Assembly (NCBI GenBank): GCA_049325335.1 | Contig: JBMOMC010000002.1 | Coordinates: 46,612 to 110,611, forward strand | Source of the DNA: Nitrospirota bacterium | GTDB lineage: Bacteria > Nitrospirota > Nitrospiria > 2-01-FULL-66-17 | DNA length: 64,000 nt | Direction: 5' to 3' | Shown here: piece by piece, positions 5,997 through 62,563 of the stretch | Layout of the letters: each line of letters begins with the position of its first letter | Numbering within the stretch: the first letter of the stretch is position 1 | The notes under the pieces: model-generated | What the model saw: the letters and a program-made list of their open reading frames with translations, nothing else | Told to the model about the DNA's origin: nothing | The model's database searches: none | Translations under genes and position numbers: made by a program

Positions 5997-6668
5997 TCAC
6001 CCGCCGCAGAGGCGGTCGATCGGTTCCACGCGCGGGCCCTTGAGGTTGTCGCGCGCGGCGTCCGCGCAATCAAGACTCACCAAATACCGAACCAACTTGT
6101 CCAGCCCGGCGACGGTGAACGTCGCCTTGAAATGGGCGGGCATGGTGGATTCATCGGGCCGTTCGCGCTGCTCGAACCCCGGGACGATGAACGCGCTGGG
6201 GCGGAGGACGGACTCGCGGATGTATTCCTCGGGCGACCGAGCCGAAGCGCGGCCGGATCGGACCGCGGCTTGATACGCGGGGGAGGCCATCCGGCGCTCC
6301 GCGGTGACCTTGGGGAGTAAGAGAGGTCCTTCGACCCCGGATTGCGCGGTGAGGATTCCCGGGATCTGGTGGCACACGCCGCAACCCAGTTTGGTGATCA
6401 TTCGTTCTGGCGTGTCCTCGTCTTGCGCCACCACCGGTATCGATGCGGGCAACGTGTCAGAACCTGGAGTCGTCACGGGCCGCCCGGCTGGGATCGATAT
6501 CGGCGCGGGCGGGGCGAACCACGCATGCCATGCCGCATACCCTCCGACCACCAGCGCGGCGGACCCGACTCCGAGCGTGAGCCAACGGTACTCGGGGGTG
6601 CGAGCCGCGGTCGAGAGCAAGATGAGCGCCATCAGCAGAAACGGGACGGCGATCAGGACGGAGGTCAT
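5997..6668 (-). CDS. membrane-anchored mono-heme c-type cytochrome
   Basis: N-terminal TM helix and a single CxxCH motif (CGVCH); ATG at 6668, ORF-track start 6674 is GTG. Confidence 0.65.
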   Translation of the reverse strand: MTSVLIAVPFLLMALILLSTAARTPEYRWLTLGVGSAALVVGGYAAWHAWFAPPAPISIPAGRPVTTPGSDTLPASIPVVAQDEDTPERMITKLGCGVCHQIPGILTAQSGVEGPLLLPKVTAERRMASPAYQAAVRSGRASARSPEEYIRESVLRPSAFIVPGFEQRERPDESTMPAHFKATFTVAGLDKLVRYLVSLDCADAARDNLKGPRVEPIDRLCGG

Positions 6669-56566: not shown

Positions 56567-56586
56567 GCCGCGCGGTCCATCACGGA

Positions 56587-58242
56587 TCAGCGGGCCGGAT
56601 ACGGAGGCAAACTCCGCAGCCGCGGGTCATCAACCGGTCCACCCAGCGTGAAGTGATACAGACTCTGGTACTGGAGTGTCGTCAGTCCCAACACCCGGTG
56701 CATGGGGTCGTCGAAGAAACAGCCGATGCCTGTGCCGCGGATGCCCGTGGCCTCGGCCTCCAAGTATAGGACCTGGCCGACGATGCCGGTTTCCCAAAAC
56801 AGCCTGGGATACGCCCATGCGCCGTCGCGCTGCAAGGGCCGCTCGAACTCCGCGATCATGCCGAGCGCAAAACAGCCGTCGGCCGCAATCGCTTGATGGC
56901 AGGAGACTTGCTCGGCGACTTGCCGGGCATCCCCGGTGAGTAACCGATATAGCGGCAGGCCGTCAGGGCACGCCGCGGGTCGCTCCCAGGCGAACTCCGG
57001 CTTCATGGCCGCGCGGAGGGCCTCCGCCTGCCCGGGCTCTCGTACCAGCAGATAGAGTCCGGGGTCCAGGTCCTGGACGCGATGGACAAAGAGCGCTAAG
57101 TGAACGCGCGGTGTCCAGGGGAGCATGGTGAAGGGGAATTGACCGGGACCGGCCAAGGTCTTGCCCAGAATCTGGTAGAACGCCTCGCGTGTAATGCCGG
57201 TCCGGCCGTCGAACGCCACCGCGCTGCGACGTTGAAAAATCATGTGGCGGAACGGAATCGGCACGGTTCCGATCGCGCGCGGCGGGCCGGCAGGATGAGC
57301 GCTCTCAGCCCCATGAGCGGTTGGCGGCTTGCGGGCCGCGGCGCTCACGCGGTCGATGATGGGCCAGTCCACGTGATCGGGACTCAACGGATTGGGGCGA
57401 CCGTGCCACGACACACTCGCGAACGCGGCGATCGCATCGCTCGGCACCGTCACCGCTCCGCGGGATTCGCCTTGTGGGTAGACCGCGAGCACGCAGTCGG
57501 GGTCCTCGGCTTCGGCGCCGTGAGGATCCCCGACGCCGAGCAACGCCGCCACCTCGTCGCTGCTCAAATCATCCAGGAGGGTTGCCTGCCAGCCCAAACC
57601 CGCGGCCGCCAGGCTCACGGCGGCCATGGCGTGTCCCACGTCGTGCTGGCAATAGCGGTACGCCCGCTCGCCGTACTTCCACGCTTCCCGCCAATGGACC
57701 GACGTCAACCCAATCAACAACACCGCGCTCGGCAACTCCGCGGTCAAGGCTTGCCAGGTCTCCAACGGGACCTCGGCACGGCGTTCCAACGCGTGTTCGG
57801 CGGGCGCGTAGTGGCACACCATCGGCGCAATGCACAATCCCTCGATCGGGCCGCAGATCAGGTACCCTTCAGTGGGATGGAGGTTGCCGCTGGACGGGTT
57901 GATCCGCAACGCCCATGACGAGTCCCCGGCCTGTTTCCAGGCGGAGAGCGCCAGGCTGTCCGAGAAGAGTTGCGACACGGTGCGATGCGTGAAGGGCTGC
58001 GGTACCACGTGGCCTGCGACAAACGCCGGCTCGTAGCGGGGGTCCGGAGTGGGCGCGACGTGCTCCAGCGTGATCAGCGTGGCGCCCGCGTACCGCCGAA
58101 ACGGATCGGGCTGCGTGGCCCAGTCCAAGTGGCCGGGCCCGCGGGCATACGCGTGCAAGTGGTGCTTGGTTGCCTGGTGGTAGGCGATGACTTCCGTGAG
58201 CGTATCAGACGTCACGCTGCCCTGGTCATCGCCGGTCGTCAT
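56587..58242 (-). CDS. SagB-type dehydrogenase / two-domain nitroreductase-family protein
   Basis: N-terminal AYHQATKHH motif typical of SagB/ThcOx-type dehydrogenases; two nitroreductase-like halves. Confidence 0.65.
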   Translation of the reverse strand: MTTGDDQGSVTSDTLTEVIAYHQATKHHLHAYARGPGHLDWATQPDPFRRYAGATLITLEHVAPTPDPRYEPAFVAGHVVPQPFTHRTVSQLFSDSLALSAWKQAGDSSWALRINPSSGNLHPTEGYLICGPIEGLCIAPMVCHYAPAEHALERRAEVPLETWQALTAELPSAVLLIGLTSVHWREAWKYGERAYRYCQHDVGHAMAAVSLAAAGLGWQATLLDDLSSDEVAALLGVGDPHGAEAEDPDCVLAVYPQGESRGAVTVPSDAIAAFASVSWHGRPNPLSPDHVDWPIIDRVSAAARKPPTAHGAESAHPAGPPRAIGTVPIPFRHMIFQRRSAVAFDGRTGITREAFYQILGKTLAGPGQFPFTMLPWTPRVHLALFVHRVQDLDPGLYLLVREPGQAEALRAAMKPEFAWERPAACPDGLPLYRLLTGDARQVAEQVSCHQAIAADGCFALGMIAEFERPLQRDGAWAYPRLFWETGIVGQVLYLEAEATGIRGTGIGCFFDDPMHRVLGLTTLQYQSLYHFTLGGPVDDPRLRSLPPYPAR

Positions 58243-58246
58243 GCCG

Positions 58247-59056
58247 TTATCCCGCGGTGATCACGTCATTGAGCAGCCGACACCCGGCAAAGAGTGTGGC
58301 CTCTTCGTCACGCATCCACCGGCTGATGGCGCCCAGGTAGACGAGTGTGTCCGCGACGGCTTTGATGTCGTGGATCCCGGTGTCCGATTGGGCAACCGTG
58401 GGATTCACCGGTTTGCTGCGATCAATCAGATACCGCAAGAGTTGTCGTTCCGGGCCATGACCAATCTCGGCCGCGAGGCGCTGTACAAAGGGTTCCCACT
58501 GAGGCCGGCCCGTTGCGATCGGATTGTCCCCGTAGTGAAGCAACAACTTGGTCAGATACGGATGGTTCCCGGTCCACGCAGCCAACGGGGGGGCAGTGTC
58601 TTTCCCGATCAGCCGTCGCGTTTCCCCATCAAGGAGGACCGAGAGGGGGAACAGGCGGAACGACACATCAGCCAACATCTGGGTGTCGCCCAAGAGCGTT
58701 CTCAGTCGGCGCCCACCGGTCACCACCAGGCTGGTTGGTTTCGCCGCGCACACTCGCGCGAGCAAGGGGGTGATCACCGAGTCAGTCAGCGCGTCGAGAT
58801 TGTCCAGAACGATGATCGAACCAGGAGACCACTCAGTGTGTGGAGAAGGGATTTCAGCGAGGTCGACCTCGACGGTTGGGCGTGACAGTCCCTGCAGGGC
58901 GGTTCGGACCAGGGAGGTCTTACCCAGCTTCGGCCCGCCGATCACCGCCAGTGACTCGCCCTGCGCGATGCGCCAACGCAGGTTCCGCACGAGGCCCTGC
59001 CGACCGATGAATGTGTCTCCGGTCGTGGGAACGGACGTGAAGGGTGTGATGAACAT
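58247..59056 (-). CDS. P-loop NTPase-like protein of unknown function
   Basis: Walker A-like GGPKLGKTS; 4 nt upstream of SagB-type gene on same strand. Confidence 0.5.
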   Translation of the reverse strand: MFITPFTSVPTTGDTFIGRQGLVRNLRWRIAQGESLAVIGGPKLGKTSLVRTALQGLSRPTVEVDLAEIPSPHTEWSPGSIIVLDNLDALTDSVITPLLARVCAAKPTSLVVTGGRRLRTLLGDTQMLADVSFRLFPLSVLLDGETRRLIGKDTAPPLAAWTGNHPYLTKLLLHYGDNPIATGRPQWEPFVQRLAAEIGHGPERQLLRYLIDRSKPVNPTVAQSDTGIHDIKAVADTLVYLGAISRWMRDEEATLFAGCRLLNDVITAG

Positions 59057-59232
59057 GGCTCACTGTAGCACAGGTCACGCCGCGCTCGATGTGCTCCGCC
59101 TCGCAGCTCCTCCACTGAATCCCTCGGATCGAAGGATTCGGTTTGCCGGCCGCCTCCGTCGTTGATTTGAGAACCGCATAAACCTCACGGCGACTTCCCG
59201 GCATAGAGACCCGGGTTGGCGTCGAACTGCCG

Positions 59233-59403
59233 CTAACGGCCGACCGAACAGCAGGAGTATGTTTGGTCCCGATGCTCGCTCTGATCTGCCGTGTTCTTCG
59301 GGTTTGCCGACATGCAGCAGTCCGGATCCTTCTGGGGCATGCCGTGATGAACCGAAGTGGTATGTCCACACCCGCACCCCCCGGTTACTGTCTGTTTGTT
59401 CAT
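59233..59403 (-). CDS. small Cys/His-rich peptide (56 aa), not in ORF track
   Basis: AGGAGG 6 nt upstream of ATG 59403; MNKQTVTGGCGCGHTTSVHHGMPQKDPDCCMSANPKNTADQSEHRDQTYSCCSVGR; 6 Cys in CxC/CC/CC pairs plus 4 His. Confidence 0.5.
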   Translation of the reverse strand: MNKQTVTGGCGCGHTTSVHHGMPQKDPDCCMSANPKNTADQSEHRDQTYSCCSVGR

Positions 59404-59585
59404 GTCCGTCCTCCTGTTTGGGGGTTCGCCAAAGGCTCAAGTGCCCTGGTCACCTCGGAGACGGACGACCGAGCCGGATATTACACCGGGCCAAACAATG
59501 CCCCGCCTTCCCTCCAAACACGTGGTCCGCACCGCTTGTCGGGTGAACGCGGAATACGATAGACTCCGGCCTCTGAGAGCTACCG

Positions 59586-60191
59586 ATGTCCGACCATCTG
59601 TCTCATCAGCCGCATGAGTCCGAGGCTCCCGAGTCGGCAGTCGTCCGGCTTGACGACCTGGTGGCGGCGCTCAACCAACACCAGGACGCGTTTCGCGGGT
59701 TTCTGCGCCGTCGGGTGGAGGACTCGGCGTTGGCGGAGGACTTGCTTCAGCAGAGTCTGGTGCGGGCGGTGGAGCGCCACCGCTCGGTCCGAGACGAGAC
59801 CAGCGCGGTGGCGTGGTTCTACCAGATTTTGCGCAACACCGTCATCGACTATTACCGCTCGCGCGGGGCGGAAGCGCGGCGCGATGACGCGTACCTTCAA
59901 GAGCTGGTGGCGACCGGACAGGACAAGGAGCCGCCGCCGGGTGAGATCACCGCCACGATCTGCGCGTGCCTTAATCGATTGCTGCCGGCTTTGCGGCCGA
60001 ACTACGCCGAACTGATCCGGCGTATCGATCTGGAAGGTGAATCGCCCCAACAGGTCGCGGCGGCACTGAACATCTCGGTGAATAACCTGACGGTTCGACT
60101 CCACCGTGCCCGCCAAGCCCTCCGCGCCAGCCTGGAAGAGACCTGCGGCATCTGTACCACCCACGGGTGCTTAAACTGTACCTGCGAATAG
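59586..60191 (+). CDS. ECF sigma factor with C-terminal Cys-rich extension (CorE-like)
   Basis: Sigma-70 region 2 and region 4 patterns; tail CGICTTHGCLNCTCE. Confidence 0.8.
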   Translation: MSDHLSHQPHESEAPESAVVRLDDLVAALNQHQDAFRGFLRRRVEDSALAEDLLQQSLVRAVERHRSVRDETSAVAWFYQILRNTVIDYYRSRGAEARRDDAYLQELVATGQDKEPPPGEITATICACLNRLLPALRPNYAELIRRIDLEGESPQQVAAALNISVNNLTVRLHRARQALRASLEETCGICTTHGCLNCTCE

Positions 60192-60315
60192 GCCGGGAGG
60201 ATCGGCGCGCCGTTTCCGGCGAGGCCCTGTTCCGGCACTGTAATATCCGCGACGGTCGTCCGTCTCCAGGGTGAGCACGGGCAATGGGCCTGGGGCACCA
60301 CGAGGAGGGCGACCC

Positions 60316-61080
60316 ATGAACAGCGCGACGATGACAACTCGGGACCACGCAACAGCGCACCACCACGGCACGGTCACGGACCCGATCTGCGGGATGTCGG
60401 TTGACCCGGCGGAGGCGGCTGGCACGAGCGAGTACCGGGGCAACACGTATTATTTCTGCTCGATTCGATGCAAACAAACGTTCGATCGCGATCCGCCCGC
60501 GCACGTTCGTTCCGAGGCTCACGCAGGGCGCGGACCGGCGTCGAAGCCGCCTACGGTTTCCGATCAACCTGGCGGGTTGGGCTCGCTCAATCGTCTGGCC
60601 TTGAGCGCGACCGTGCACTGCTTGACCGGTTGCGCGACCGGTGAAGTGCTGGGTCTGGTGATCGGCACGGCGTTGGGGTGGGGTACATGGCCCACCATCG
60701 CGTTGGCGGTGGGCTTGGCCTTCGTGTTCGGTTATCTCTTTACTCTGGTCCCGCTCGTGCGGGGAGGGCTGGGATTCCGCGCCGCGTTCGGTCTGGCTTT
60801 GGCCTCGGACACGGCGTCGATCGCGATCATGGAAGTGGTCGACAACGGCGTGATGCTCGTGATTCCCGGCGCAATGGACGCGGGGCTGGCCGATCCGCTT
60901 TTCTGGGGAAGCCTTTCCATCGCACTGACGATCGCGGGCGTCGCCGCGTTTCCGGTGAATCGGTGGCTGATCGCCCGCGGGCGAGGGCATGCCTTGGTCC
61001 ATCAGTACCACGGCCACACCCCGTCGGAGGGTGGGCCTGCCGGCGGGCAGCATGCCGGGACATACGGAGCGCACCATTAA
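60316..61080 (+). CDS. YHS-domain + DUF4396-like membrane protein
   Basis: YHS/TRASH-like DPICGMSV...YYFCSIRCKQTF then 4-TM domain with HCLTGCATGE; GAGGAGGG RBS before ATG 60316. Confidence 0.7.
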   Translation: MNSATMTTRDHATAHHHGTVTDPICGMSVDPAEAAGTSEYRGNTYYFCSIRCKQTFDRDPPAHVRSEAHAGRGPASKPPTVSDQPGGLGSLNRLALSATVHCLTGCATGEVLGLVIGTALGWGTWPTIALAVGLAFVFGYLFTLVPLVRGGLGFRAAFGLALASDTASIAIMEVVDNGVMLVIPGAMDAGLADPLFWGSLSIALTIAGVAAFPVNRWLIARGRGHALVHQYHGHTPSEGGPAGGQHAGTYGAHH

Positions 61081-61194
61081 TGGATTGGGACGCGTGAACG
61101 GCATCGTTATCACCGTGCACCACCGTCGGAGGCCTGTCATTCCGCGTGGTGATATGGTCTGCGGGTTTGCCAATTCCGCGAGGGGACTTCCGGC

Positions 61195-62019
61195 ATGACC
61201 GACCGCGCAGGTGGCGCGTCCGTGCGGTGGCCGCTCCCCAAACACGACTACTGGTCCACGCCGTTCGCCGAGGCGTTGTTACACCATTTGGTGCTCGTTC
61301 CGGGATTGACCATCCTGGATGTTGCCTGCGGCCACGGTATTCCCGCGTTCTATGTGGCCGAACAGATCGGCCCGACCGGGCAGGTCTTGGGCCTCGACAT
61401 CAGCGAGCACCAGATCGCGCGCGCTCGGGCGATTCAGGGATCGCAGCTCCCGTGGTTGAAGTTTGAGTGTGTGGACGTGCGCGTATTGCCGTCATCGGTT
61501 CCGACGTTCGATCGCATTATCGGCAACTTGTCGGTCATGTTCTTTCGCCCGAACCGGTTCGACTCGGTCCGCGGGTTGGTTGAGCATCTCAAGCCCGGCG
61601 GCCAACTGGTCCTGACCTTCCCGTCCCTCGGCACGTTCGATGCGCTGTGGCGGAGAATCGATCGCGAAATGGTCGCGCGCGGGCTGAGGGTGGAAGCATC
61701 GCGCCTTGCGGCGTATGTGGCGGAGCGGCCGTCCGCCAAAGACGGTCGGGGATGGCTCGAAGCATTGGGTCTCGATCGGATCGAGGTTGCCGAGTGGCCC
61801 CTGGAAATCGCCACCGGTCCCGGCCCGGCGTTTCTTTTCCATCCGTTGCTGCGAGGAGGATTTCTTGACGATGCGTATGAGTGTTTCGATGATCAGCGGC
61901 TTGCGGACGAGGTCATGAAGGCGGTATCCGAGGACTTGCCGAGTTTCACGCCGTTGATCGCCCAACGGTGCGTCTTGTCGGGGTGGAAGCGCGGCCTGAA
62001 CGACGCCGCGGTCAAGTGA
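61195..62019 (+). CDS. class I SAM-dependent methyltransferase
   Basis: Motif I LDVACGHG and motif post-I LGLDIS. Confidence 0.8.
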   Translation: MTDRAGGASVRWPLPKHDYWSTPFAEALLHHLVLVPGLTILDVACGHGIPAFYVAEQIGPTGQVLGLDISEHQIARARAIQGSQLPWLKFECVDVRVLPSSVPTFDRIIGNLSVMFFRPNRFDSVRGLVEHLKPGGQLVLTFPSLGTFDALWRRIDREMVARGLRVEASRLAAYVAERPSAKDGRGWLEALGLDRIEVAEWPLEIATGPGPAFLFHPLLRGGFLDDAYECFDDQRLADEVMKAVSEDLPSFTPLIAQRCVLSGWKRGLNDAAVK

Positions 62020-62563
62020 TGTGTGTGAGCCGTAGCCGGGGCGTGTCCGATCCAGACGCCGGTCTGACCCCGGTGTCCACCAGCCCGAGATAGCGATCGA
62101 CATCGGTCCGGAATGTTTCGACTGCGAGTCCCATCCAGATTCCGTGGAATGCACCGAGTCGCTCGCCCGCTGCTTTGGCGAGCGTGCGCGCCGCCCGCGT
62201 GTGGCCCATGCGGAGTTTAAGCAACGCAGCGGCCGAGCCGATCAGTCCCTGGACGAACCGCGCGTGGTCTGACTGCGGGGGGTGCGCGCGCCACAACGGT
62301 TCCCACGCTTCATGCGCCTCCCAGAAATACCAACGGTTGAACAGGTCGACCCCGCGAAGATAGGCCTGCAGCGTCGGCCACTGCTCGGGCGTCCATGGTG
62401 CGTGCACGGCGGGTACACTGCGCGCGATGCGACCGGTTTCCGGGTTTCGGTCAGGGTGCGGCGAGAGGCCGGGGATGAATCGCGACGCGGGGAGCGTCCG
62501 GTCGGATCCGTACCAGGGAATCGTGGCGACGTCAGATGGATCAAGGGGCGGGGTGACGGGCAT
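62012..62563 (-). CDS. DUF309-domain protein
   Basis: DLFNRWYFWEAHEAWEPLW matches the DUF309 signature. Confidence 0.6.
   Translation of the reverse strand: MPVTPPLDPSDVATIPWYGSDRTLPASRFIPGLSPHPDRNPETGRIARSVPAVHAPWTPEQWPTLQAYLRGVDLFNRWYFWEAHEAWEPLWRAHPPQSDHARFVQGLIGSAAALLKLRMGHTRAARTLAKAAGERLGAFHGIWMGLAVETFRTDVDRYLGLVDTGVRPASGSDTPRLRLTHIT

Follow-up and report, generated by a model that had tools for sequence, protein, structure and literature searches.

The 64,000-nucleotide stretch analysed here, referred to as the window, belongs to a Nitrospirota bacterium (assembly GCA_049325335.1, contig JBMOMC010000002.1) and encodes an extracytoplasmic function (ECF) sigma factor with a cysteine-rich C-terminal tail. 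The sigma gene diverges from a gene for a small Cys-rich peptide and is followed, on its own strand, by genes for a membrane protein with YHS and DUF4396 domains and for a methyltransferase. This arrangement had been described in an earlier note made from the letters of the DNA, which placed the divergent genes 182 bp apart and recognised the YHS-domain membrane protein and the methyltransferase after the sigma factor; the gap (59404..59585) is exactly 182 bp, and Pfam matches confirm both proteins. Judging from its sequence signatures, the product of 59586..60191 is a CorE-like ECF sigma factor (old group ECF44, now within ECF238), and the locus probably encodes a CorE-type protein that by itself both senses metal and regulates a small set of nearby genes. 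The features of the sigma factor gene, in window positions, are:

59586..60191, + strand: CorE-like ECF sigma factor gene, 201 residues, with Pfam Sigma70_r2 and Sigma70_r4_2
59961..59969, + strand: codons of the CxC motif C126-A127-C128 at the sigma2/sigma4.2 junction, read from the sequence
60144..60185, + strand: core of the Cys-rich tail, C187-x2-C190-x4-C195-x2-C198-x-C200, with H193; spacing as in CorE

The sigma protein, 100% identical to NCBI MFZ5861980.1 from a Nitrospirota metagenome-assembled genome (MAG), contains Sigma70_r2 at residues 30-94 and Sigma70_r4_2 at residues 128-179, and no further Pfam domain. The one curated NCBIfam model that it passes is that of the sigma70-ECF superfamily; the top specific model is SigZ TIGR02959 (E 3e-33), with 114.9 bits below a cutoff of 168.65. 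The C-terminal end reads ...ETCGICTTHGCLNCTCE, and the tail, CGICTTHGCLNCTCE, is 22 residues long and holds five cysteines (C187, C190, C195, C198, and C200), not the six counted at first sight in the earlier note; C126 and C128 in the linker bring the total to seven. The ECF sigma structures in the PDB align to the protein only up to about residue 185, and its final 16-22 residues thus form a genuine extension at the C-terminus. The seven Cys, together with H193 and G194, are invariant in an alignment of 38 homologues (58-91% identity). The Cys-tail pattern was also found in all 84 loci of a wider set, formed by 80 loci fetched from Nitrospirales genomes and four contigs of close relatives. 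The CxC motif is invariant in three homologue alignments and, by our reading of the output, is present in the 84 loci as well. The second tail Cys is followed by Thr in the window sigma and, in the whole set, by Ser (47 loci), Thr (36) or Ala (1), never by Cys. In one locus, L066 (~6500-6567, in a 4-Mb MAG of Nitrospiraceae), the tail is interrupted by an in-frame stop (CGFCTKYGCV*CTCV, with the asterisk marking the stop), which means either a pseudogene or a sequencing error.

CorE-like factors were defined by a C-terminal Cys-rich domain plus a strictly conserved CxC between sigma2 and sigma4.2, by the lack of an anti-sigma factor, and by a metal-related neighbourhood (PMC3107203, PMC4937300, PMC6851896). 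In both CorE and CorE2 the Cys-rich domain and the CxC are essential for metal-dependent activity (PMC3107203, PMC4937300). The tail Cys of CorE are 181, 184, 189, 192, 194, and 206, of which 181, 184, 192, and 194 are family-invariant (PMC3107203). The comparison with CorE was made via these published residue numbers and via two plasmid-borne sigma factors from organisms of the founding list, those of Phenylobacterium zucineum (43% identity to the window sigma) and Roseobacter litoralis (37%). The first five tail Cys are spaced identically (181/184/189/192/194 in CorE, 187/190/195/198/200 in the window), window C195 being the equivalent of CorE C189, and the CxC and the four invariant tail Cys (C187, C190, C198, and C200) are conserved with respect to both plasmid proteins. 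The window sigma thus shows the signatures of the CorE-like group: sigma2 and sigma4 as sole domains with the CxC between them, a Cys-rich tail with a non-Cys residue after its second Cys, no linked anti-sigma factor, and a metal-related neighbourhood, with copper-handling genes beside it and P1B ATPases among the targets in relatives. The resemblance to metal-sensing CorE-type factors that had been suggested from the tail is therefore borne out by the CxC, the Cys spacing, and the founding-list alignment. On the other hand, the window sigma is only distantly related to CorE (37-43% identity even to other proteobacterial members), and instead of a multicopper oxidase its targets would be the YHS-DUF4396 protein and a mini-YHS peptide.

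Three further relatives help to place the protein. CorE2, which is MXAN_5263 of Myxococcus xanthus, belongs to subgroup 15 of ECF238 and is switched on by Cd and Zn. It has, like the window sigma, a short tail (28 residues in CorE2), a CxC, which is essential in CorE2, and a small adjacent regulon, which in the window is a candidate one; CorE2 is not autoregulated by metal. It differs in the residue after the second tail Cys, which is Cys174 in CorE2, where it sets Cd/Zn specificity, and Thr, or Ser/Thr/Ala, in the window sigma and its relatives. Candidatus Nitrospira defluvii NIDE1902 was already among the 21 Cys-rich-domain sigma factors of Gomez-Santos et al. 2011 (PMC3107203). The N. defluvii protein P0058, presumably NIDE1902, is 62-68% identical to the window sigma, with which it shares the Nitrospirales clade, the tail (SCGACSTHGCLNCTCE) and the CxC; NIDE1902 was never characterised, with no promoter or regulon proposed for it, and loci of the N. 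defluvii type have CopZ after the promoter motif described below (L002). Finally, Casas-Pastor et al. 2021 merged ECF44 and ECF24 into ECF238, which also contains SigZ and CorE2, and for this reason SigZ as the best curated model fits the placement in ECF238. SigZ of Bacillus subtilis likewise has no anti-sigma factor and a short Cys-containing C-terminus; the window sigma, however, scores under the SigZ equivalog cutoff, the C-terminus of SigZ has no more than two Cys, and the CxC motif is not a general feature of ECF238.

Homologues with 37-46% identity are also found on plasmids, in 315 plasmid records (e.g., CP114554, CP114558, and CP114563), which include Candidatus Manganitrophus plasmids, many of the Roseobacter group and many enterobacterial conjugative plasmids.

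The regulon is suggested by a promoter-like motif that occurs at two positions in the window:

60239..60264, + strand: predicted sigma-dependent promoter of the YHS-DUF4396 operon, TGTAAT-N16-CGTC
59460..59485, - strand: second promoter copy, oriented towards the gene of the Cys-rich peptide and 56 nt ahead of its ATG; identical to the other copy at 23 of 26 bases

In its extended form the motif is a 28-nt string, TGTAATATCCG-N3-CGGTCGTCCGTCTC, with exactly two copies in the 64 kb and zero expected by chance, at 60239..60266 (+) ahead of the YHS-DUF4396 gene and at 59458..59485 (-) ahead of the peptide gene. The reduced form TGTAAT-N16-CGTC still gives only these two sites against 0.04 expected, and a position weight matrix (PWM) built from the sites of related loci finds no third site in the window. 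A promoter search had been proposed in the earlier note for precisely the two regions involved, 59404..59585 and the sequence upstream of the YHS gene, and each contains one copy. The motif has the form of an ECF promoter, with an AA-containing -35, a 16-nt spacer and a CGT-containing -10, and shows no dyad symmetry. Its two window copies are 88% identical, whereas the duplicated leader and coding DNA around them is 55-60% identical, and the motif therefore appears to be under constraint.

The same motif is widespread in the related loci, where its consensus is C-TGTAATAtTtg.cg.cCTccTCCGTCTgtAa. The relaxed pattern TGTAA[TG]-N14-[TC][CT]CGTC has 84 matches in 876 kb of these loci, against about 0.8 calculated by chance, and in 69 of the 84 loci the motif lies on the sigma strand within 1.3 kb past the end of the sigma gene, the median distance from the stop codon being 80 nt (in L066 it is placed 547 nt farther downstream than usual). 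It stays behind the sigma gene while the downstream gene varies between CopZ, ATPase, DUF4396 protein, and methyltransferase, and it also precedes metal genes several kb away from sigma (L056, L068, and L080). This position, and the presence of one copy before each transcription unit flanking the window sigma, agree with the self-contained regulon envisaged in the earlier note. The motif is found nowhere upstream of the sigma gene on its own strand, either in the window or in the related loci, which would match the incomplete autoregulation reported for CorE and CorE2 and typical of CorE-like factors (PMC6851896).

The assignment of the motif to the Cys-tailed sigma is one of association, and TGTAAT-N16-CGTC might instead be read by another regulator, for example a different ECF sigma factor or a metal-sensing repressor, with the Cys-tailed sigma acting on other targets. 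Such a reader would fit the 15 of 84 loci in which no motif lies within 1.3 kb downstream of the sigma gene, the missing upstream motif, which leaves the sigma gene with no autoregulatory anchor, and the extra conserved sequence past the -10 of many promoters (CGTC-TGTAA..GGTGAAC), a possible operator. Nevertheless, a sigma factor and its target promoter should behave in just this way, with the motif keeping its place behind sigma as the genes further on vary, and the ECF -35/-10 architecture without dyad symmetry points the same way. In addition, the sigma4 and sigma2 recognition segments (N167-R176; W77-Y79, D88, and R91) are invariant in the 38-homologue alignment, in step with the invariant TGTAA and CGTC, and incomplete autoregulation is the usual condition in CorE-like factors. 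A different reader of the motif is thus considered highly improbable.

Some additional features of these promoters can be mentioned. Many Nitrospira copies (L018 7509/7535, L025 6643/6669, and most in L012-L067) continue as CGTC-TGTAA..(G)GTGAAC, and in the promoters of the ATPase type a second TGTAATTCTGA...ACGTC unit comes immediately after the first. The window copies have no second TGTAA and keep the GGTGA; a tandem promoter, an operator, or a leader element is possible. As for the sigma gene itself, the ~50 nt before its start codon (GCTTGTCGGGTGAACGCGGAATACGATAGACTCC; 59534..59585) are conserved in a relative with a 91%-identical sigma (L081 7829..7880) and include a candidate housekeeping-type promoter, TTGTCG ... 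TAGACT, unflagged by the consensus scan. No known RNA families were found in 58900-61300.

The upstream neighbours of the sigma gene vary among the loci and may be a DsbA-like protein, Slp, DeoC, PhoX, or, as in the window, the peptide. The DsbA-like exported thioredoxin gene, not present in the window, lies upstream of sigma in 28 of the 84 loci (e.g., L014 4907..5923), on the same strand and ending at a median of 29 nt before the sigma start codon, and may be co-transcribed with it. No anti-sigma-like gene is conserved adjoining the sigma gene across the 84 loci, and since the neighbours differ from one locus to another, no linked anti-sigma partner is conserved, in line with the early suggestion that a separate partner is lacking. 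Both the peptide and the YHS-DUF4396 protein were considered as anti-sigma factors and rejected, as neither is conserved beside sigma and no HxxxCxxC was seen in the peptide.

A conventional ECF factor held by an unlinked anti-sigma, with the Cys tail as a structural zinc site devoid of any sensing role, would also account for this picture. The partner could lie outside the 64-kb window, the tail is modelled as a knuckle-like hairpin that could be a structural Zn site, and the authors of the CorE study could not fully exclude an anti-sigma factor (PMC3107203). What speaks against it, besides the lack of any conserved anti-sigma-like gene beside sigma, is that a metal-related neighbourhood is the rule for the CorE-like group and that CorE and CorE2 show no activity when overexpressed without metal, while deletion of their tail inactivates them and does not free them (PMC3107203, PMC4937300). 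This last explanation is the least credible of those considered here, with a very small chance of being right. The behaviour of the CorE tail also bears on the idea, put forward in the earlier note, that the extension stands where an anti-sigma factor would normally act: it is right in that no linked anti-sigma is conserved, and loose in that the CorE tail is needed for activity and is not inhibitory.

Under the CorE-type reading, the genes that follow the motif bear on the nature of the signal. The first open reading frame (ORF) past the motif encodes P1B ATPases with YHS and HMBD domains in 29 cases, DUF4396 proteins in 28 (6 of them YHS-fused, the others with His-rich N-termini and CC motifs), HMA/CopZ-like proteins with GMxCxxC in 14, methyltransferases in 4, a DUF3313 lipoprotein in 1, and unclassified products in 8. 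The ATPase of L014 carries CPC, YN-x4-P, and M-x2-SS, which we take to be the signatures of P1B-1 transporters of Cu(I)/Ag(I). Copper is the likely signal, to judge from these sequences, and is favoured for two reasons: P1B ATPases, DUF4396 proteins, and HMA/CopZ proteins follow the motif in relatives, and the Ser/Thr/Ala found at the specificity position matches Ala185 of CorE and not Cys174 of CorE2, the position that swaps copper against Cd/Zn specificity (PMC4937300). CorE has been reported to be on with Cu(II) and off with Cu(I), while CorE2 responds to Cd and Zn.

The architecture and the regulon could be the same and the signal another thiophilic metal (Zn, Cd, Ag, or Hg) or thiol oxidation, with target genes that cope with this other stress. 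CorE2, the closest characterised ECF238 relative, responds to Cd/Zn, and one residue swaps the specificity (PMC4937300); Cys clusters like those of zinc-binding anti-sigma (ZAS) factors are able to act as redox sensors (PMC6851896). Moreover, DUF4396 has no known function or structural relative, and neither YHS/TRASH domains nor CC/His-rich N-termini are copper-specific. Against this, the genes most often preceded by the motif encode P1B-1-type ATPases and CopZ-like HMA proteins, which are copper/silver hallmarks, and the specificity position is never Cys in the 84 loci. A signal other than copper is accordingly unlikely, although it deserves to be kept in mind.

The two genes behind the first promoter of the window are:

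60316..61080, + strand: YHS-DUF4396 membrane protein gene, 254 residues; Pfam YHS E 2.6e-12, DUF4396 E 2.5e-42
61195..62019, + strand: class-I S-adenosylmethionine (SAM) methyltransferase gene; Pfam Methyltransf_25/11/31; 114 nt downstream of YHS-DUF4396

The DUF4396 (PF14342) match reaches 145 bits against a Pfam gathering cutoff of 27. The most likely start of the YHS-DUF4396 gene is the ATG at 60316, which is preceded by GGAGG at 8-12 nt and corresponds to the ATG of the peptide in the alignment; a GTG at 60271 was rejected because it falls directly after the predicted -10 element. In the NCBI record the gene begins at an internal start (MFZ5861981.1, 167 residues), which leaves out the YHS domain. 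Nine listed homologues with 66-84% identity retain the fusion. The AlphaFold2 (AF2) model of the protein, with a mean predicted local distance difference test (pLDDT) of 79.7, has a small YHS fold joined by a disordered linker to four long helices. Invariant in 33 homologues are H101-C102-x3-C106, E110, D165, M172, E173, D176, and N177, together with M180, M187, H225, and H232, and these residues would suit a metal site inside the membrane. A search for solved structural relatives of the protein found none, and literature searches found nothing relevant on the function of DUF4396. The methyltransferase gene is probably co-transcribed with the YHS-DUF4396 gene, and the arrangement of both is conserved in L081 and L083; motif-preceded methyltransferases are those of L018, L020, L024, and L060.

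The second promoter leads to a gene whose origin can be traced in some detail:

59233..59403, - strand: gene for the 56-residue Cys-rich peptide, a truncated Cys-enriched YHS paralogue, according to BLASTP and DNA collinearity
59074..59533, no strand: window-specific segment with the peptide gene and its promoter, from blastn against L081

The peptide gene, with an AGGAGG 7-12 nt ahead of its ATG, is unannotated at NCBI and is called only in a Logan assembly. By BLASTP, its product is 43% identical over 54 residues to the N-terminus of the YHS-DUF4396 protein, with the alignment beginning at Met1 on either side (E 9e-10). In the DNA, the peptide and YHS sides are collinear from the -35 element to the peptide stop codon, with identities of 23/26 bases in the motif, 28/51 in the leader, and 95/159 in the coding part, and the 15 bases upstream of the motif are without similarity (3/15). 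From this collinearity it follows that the peptide gene and its promoter arose when part of the neighbouring gene, from its promoter through the leader into the start of the YHS-coding region, was duplicated in inverted orientation. The changes since the duplication comprise a GGCGCG insertion, CGM -> CCM, YFC -> SCC, and the loss of the third domain Cys, as the peptide ends before it. In L081, whose sigma is 91% identical, homology extends over 56584-59073 and 59534-62554, and the 460-bp peptide segment is absent, with a 1.8-kb PhoX gene in its place.

Apart from the peptide, a HMMER search of 1.8 billion representatives returned only ten proteins with YHS repeats (E 4e-11 to 8e-4) and an unrelated one with low-complexity repeats; no orthologue of the peptide appeared in any database searched. 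The Pfam YHS model (PF04945) gives no match to it at E 0.01. By sequence, the peptide is thus a derived relative of the YHS domain and not a member by the curated threshold. It aligns with the core of YHS/TRASH domains (DPxC.M ... Y..CS) and is Cys/His-rich like the CC/His N-termini of the Nitrospira ATPases and DUF4396 proteins; it differs from YHS/TRASH domains and small bacterial metallothioneins in its score below the YHS threshold and in the missing third domain Cys, and from YHS domains in the CGC, CC, and CC pairs that it has gained.

Beyond the peptide gene, at 56587..59056 (-), lie a P-loop-like 269-residue gene and a 551-residue tandem-nitroreductase gene of the SagB type (TIGR03605 above cutoff), 4 nt apart; the pair stands beside PhoX in L081 and L082, and defence-system models gave no match to it. 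The possibility that the peptide is the precursor of a ribosomally synthesised and post-translationally modified peptide (RiPP) processed by this pair, in a cluster resembling those of thiazole/oxazole-modified microcins (TOMM), was rejected: the pair is kept in L081 and L082 without the peptide and with PhoX instead, no YcaO was seen among the adjacent scanned ORFs, and the peptide is a YHS-domain duplicate. In the interval between the peptide and P-loop genes the predicted fold is no better than shuffled (z -0.09) and a consensus terminator scan finds none, so the two genes may be co-transcribed.

The CorE-type reading of the locus can be put together as follows. The sigma factor would be made from its own promoter, devoid of the TGTAAT-N16-CGTC motif, and would become active only once the five tail Cys, perhaps with His193, and the CxC at the sigma2/sigma4 junction have bound a thiophilic metal, copper being the most probable one. 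The metal-loaded sigma would then direct the RNA polymerase to the TGTAAT-N16-CGTC promoters. One of these would drive the YHS-DUF4396 membrane protein, probably along with the methyltransferase, and the inverted copy would drive the 56-residue Cys/His-rich peptide as an extra cytoplasmic metal-binding or buffering peptide. The protein signatures, the motif with its conservation and target genes, and the duplication are direct observations; that the sigma reads the motif, that metal binding switches it on, and that the metal is copper are what we infer.

Several points weigh against this reading. The link between sigma and motif comes from co-location and architecture, and 15 of the 84 loci have no nearby motif. 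The tail has 22 residues against 38 in CorE, whose sixth Cys (C206) has no equivalent in it. Of the sigma protein, AF2 gives a model that is confident for the domains and shows the tail as a short knuckle-like hairpin at a moderate pLDDT of ~63, with a low predicted template modelling score (pTM) of 0.42, and lends no structural support to a joint site made by the CxC and the tail. As a single residue shifts the specificity, sequence is a weak basis for naming the metal. The methyltransferase, a generic class-I enzyme, is preceded by no motif in pattern and PWM scans of the window and is 30% identical, over the SAM core only, to the motif-preceded ones, to which it is not clearly orthologous; its membership in the regulon is consequently positional only. 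Literature searches returned no expression, binding, or metal data for any Nitrospirota member.

The proposed circuit is small and largely one of ordinary metal defence, and it does not overturn current understanding. The CorE-like kind of sigma factor is known in itself, and the Nitrospira clade was already flagged in 2011 (NIDE1902). What is new is the candidate promoter, the Nitrospirales-wide candidate regulon that places DUF4396 beside CopA and CopZ, and a lineage-specific peptide that arose by duplication of a promoter plus a domain. Literature searches on a copper response of Nitrospira via a CorE-like sigma found nothing relevant. CorE-like factors are the clearest sigma factors that sense metals by themselves, and studies exist for only two of them, both from Myxococcus. 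In soil and in wastewater treatment, Nitrospira play a key part as nitrifiers, and many other Nitrospira are complete ammonia oxidisers dependent on copper enzymes. The results provide a compact circuit that lends itself to testing, with a single sigma, a promoter of 26 nt and few targets; an initial way into the function of the widespread DUF4396 family; and a concrete case of regulon growth in which a promoter and a domain are copied together.

A bolder proposal, which is somewhat less probable than its opposite, is that DUF4396, with its invariant HCxxxC and the Met, His, Asp and Glu residues in its predicted helices, represents a hitherto unnoticed class of copper-handling membrane proteins, core to the CorE-like regulon with CopA and CopZ throughout Nitrospirales via TGTAAT-N16-CGTC, and that the peptide is a nascent metallothionein-like gene. 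If this were true, the DUF4396 proteins would be copper exporters or sequestering proteins with N-terminal YHS, CC, or His-rich modules for metal capture, and a new metallothionein-like gene would have come into being when a sigma-dependent promoter was copied in inverted orientation along with the first domain of the gene that it controls.

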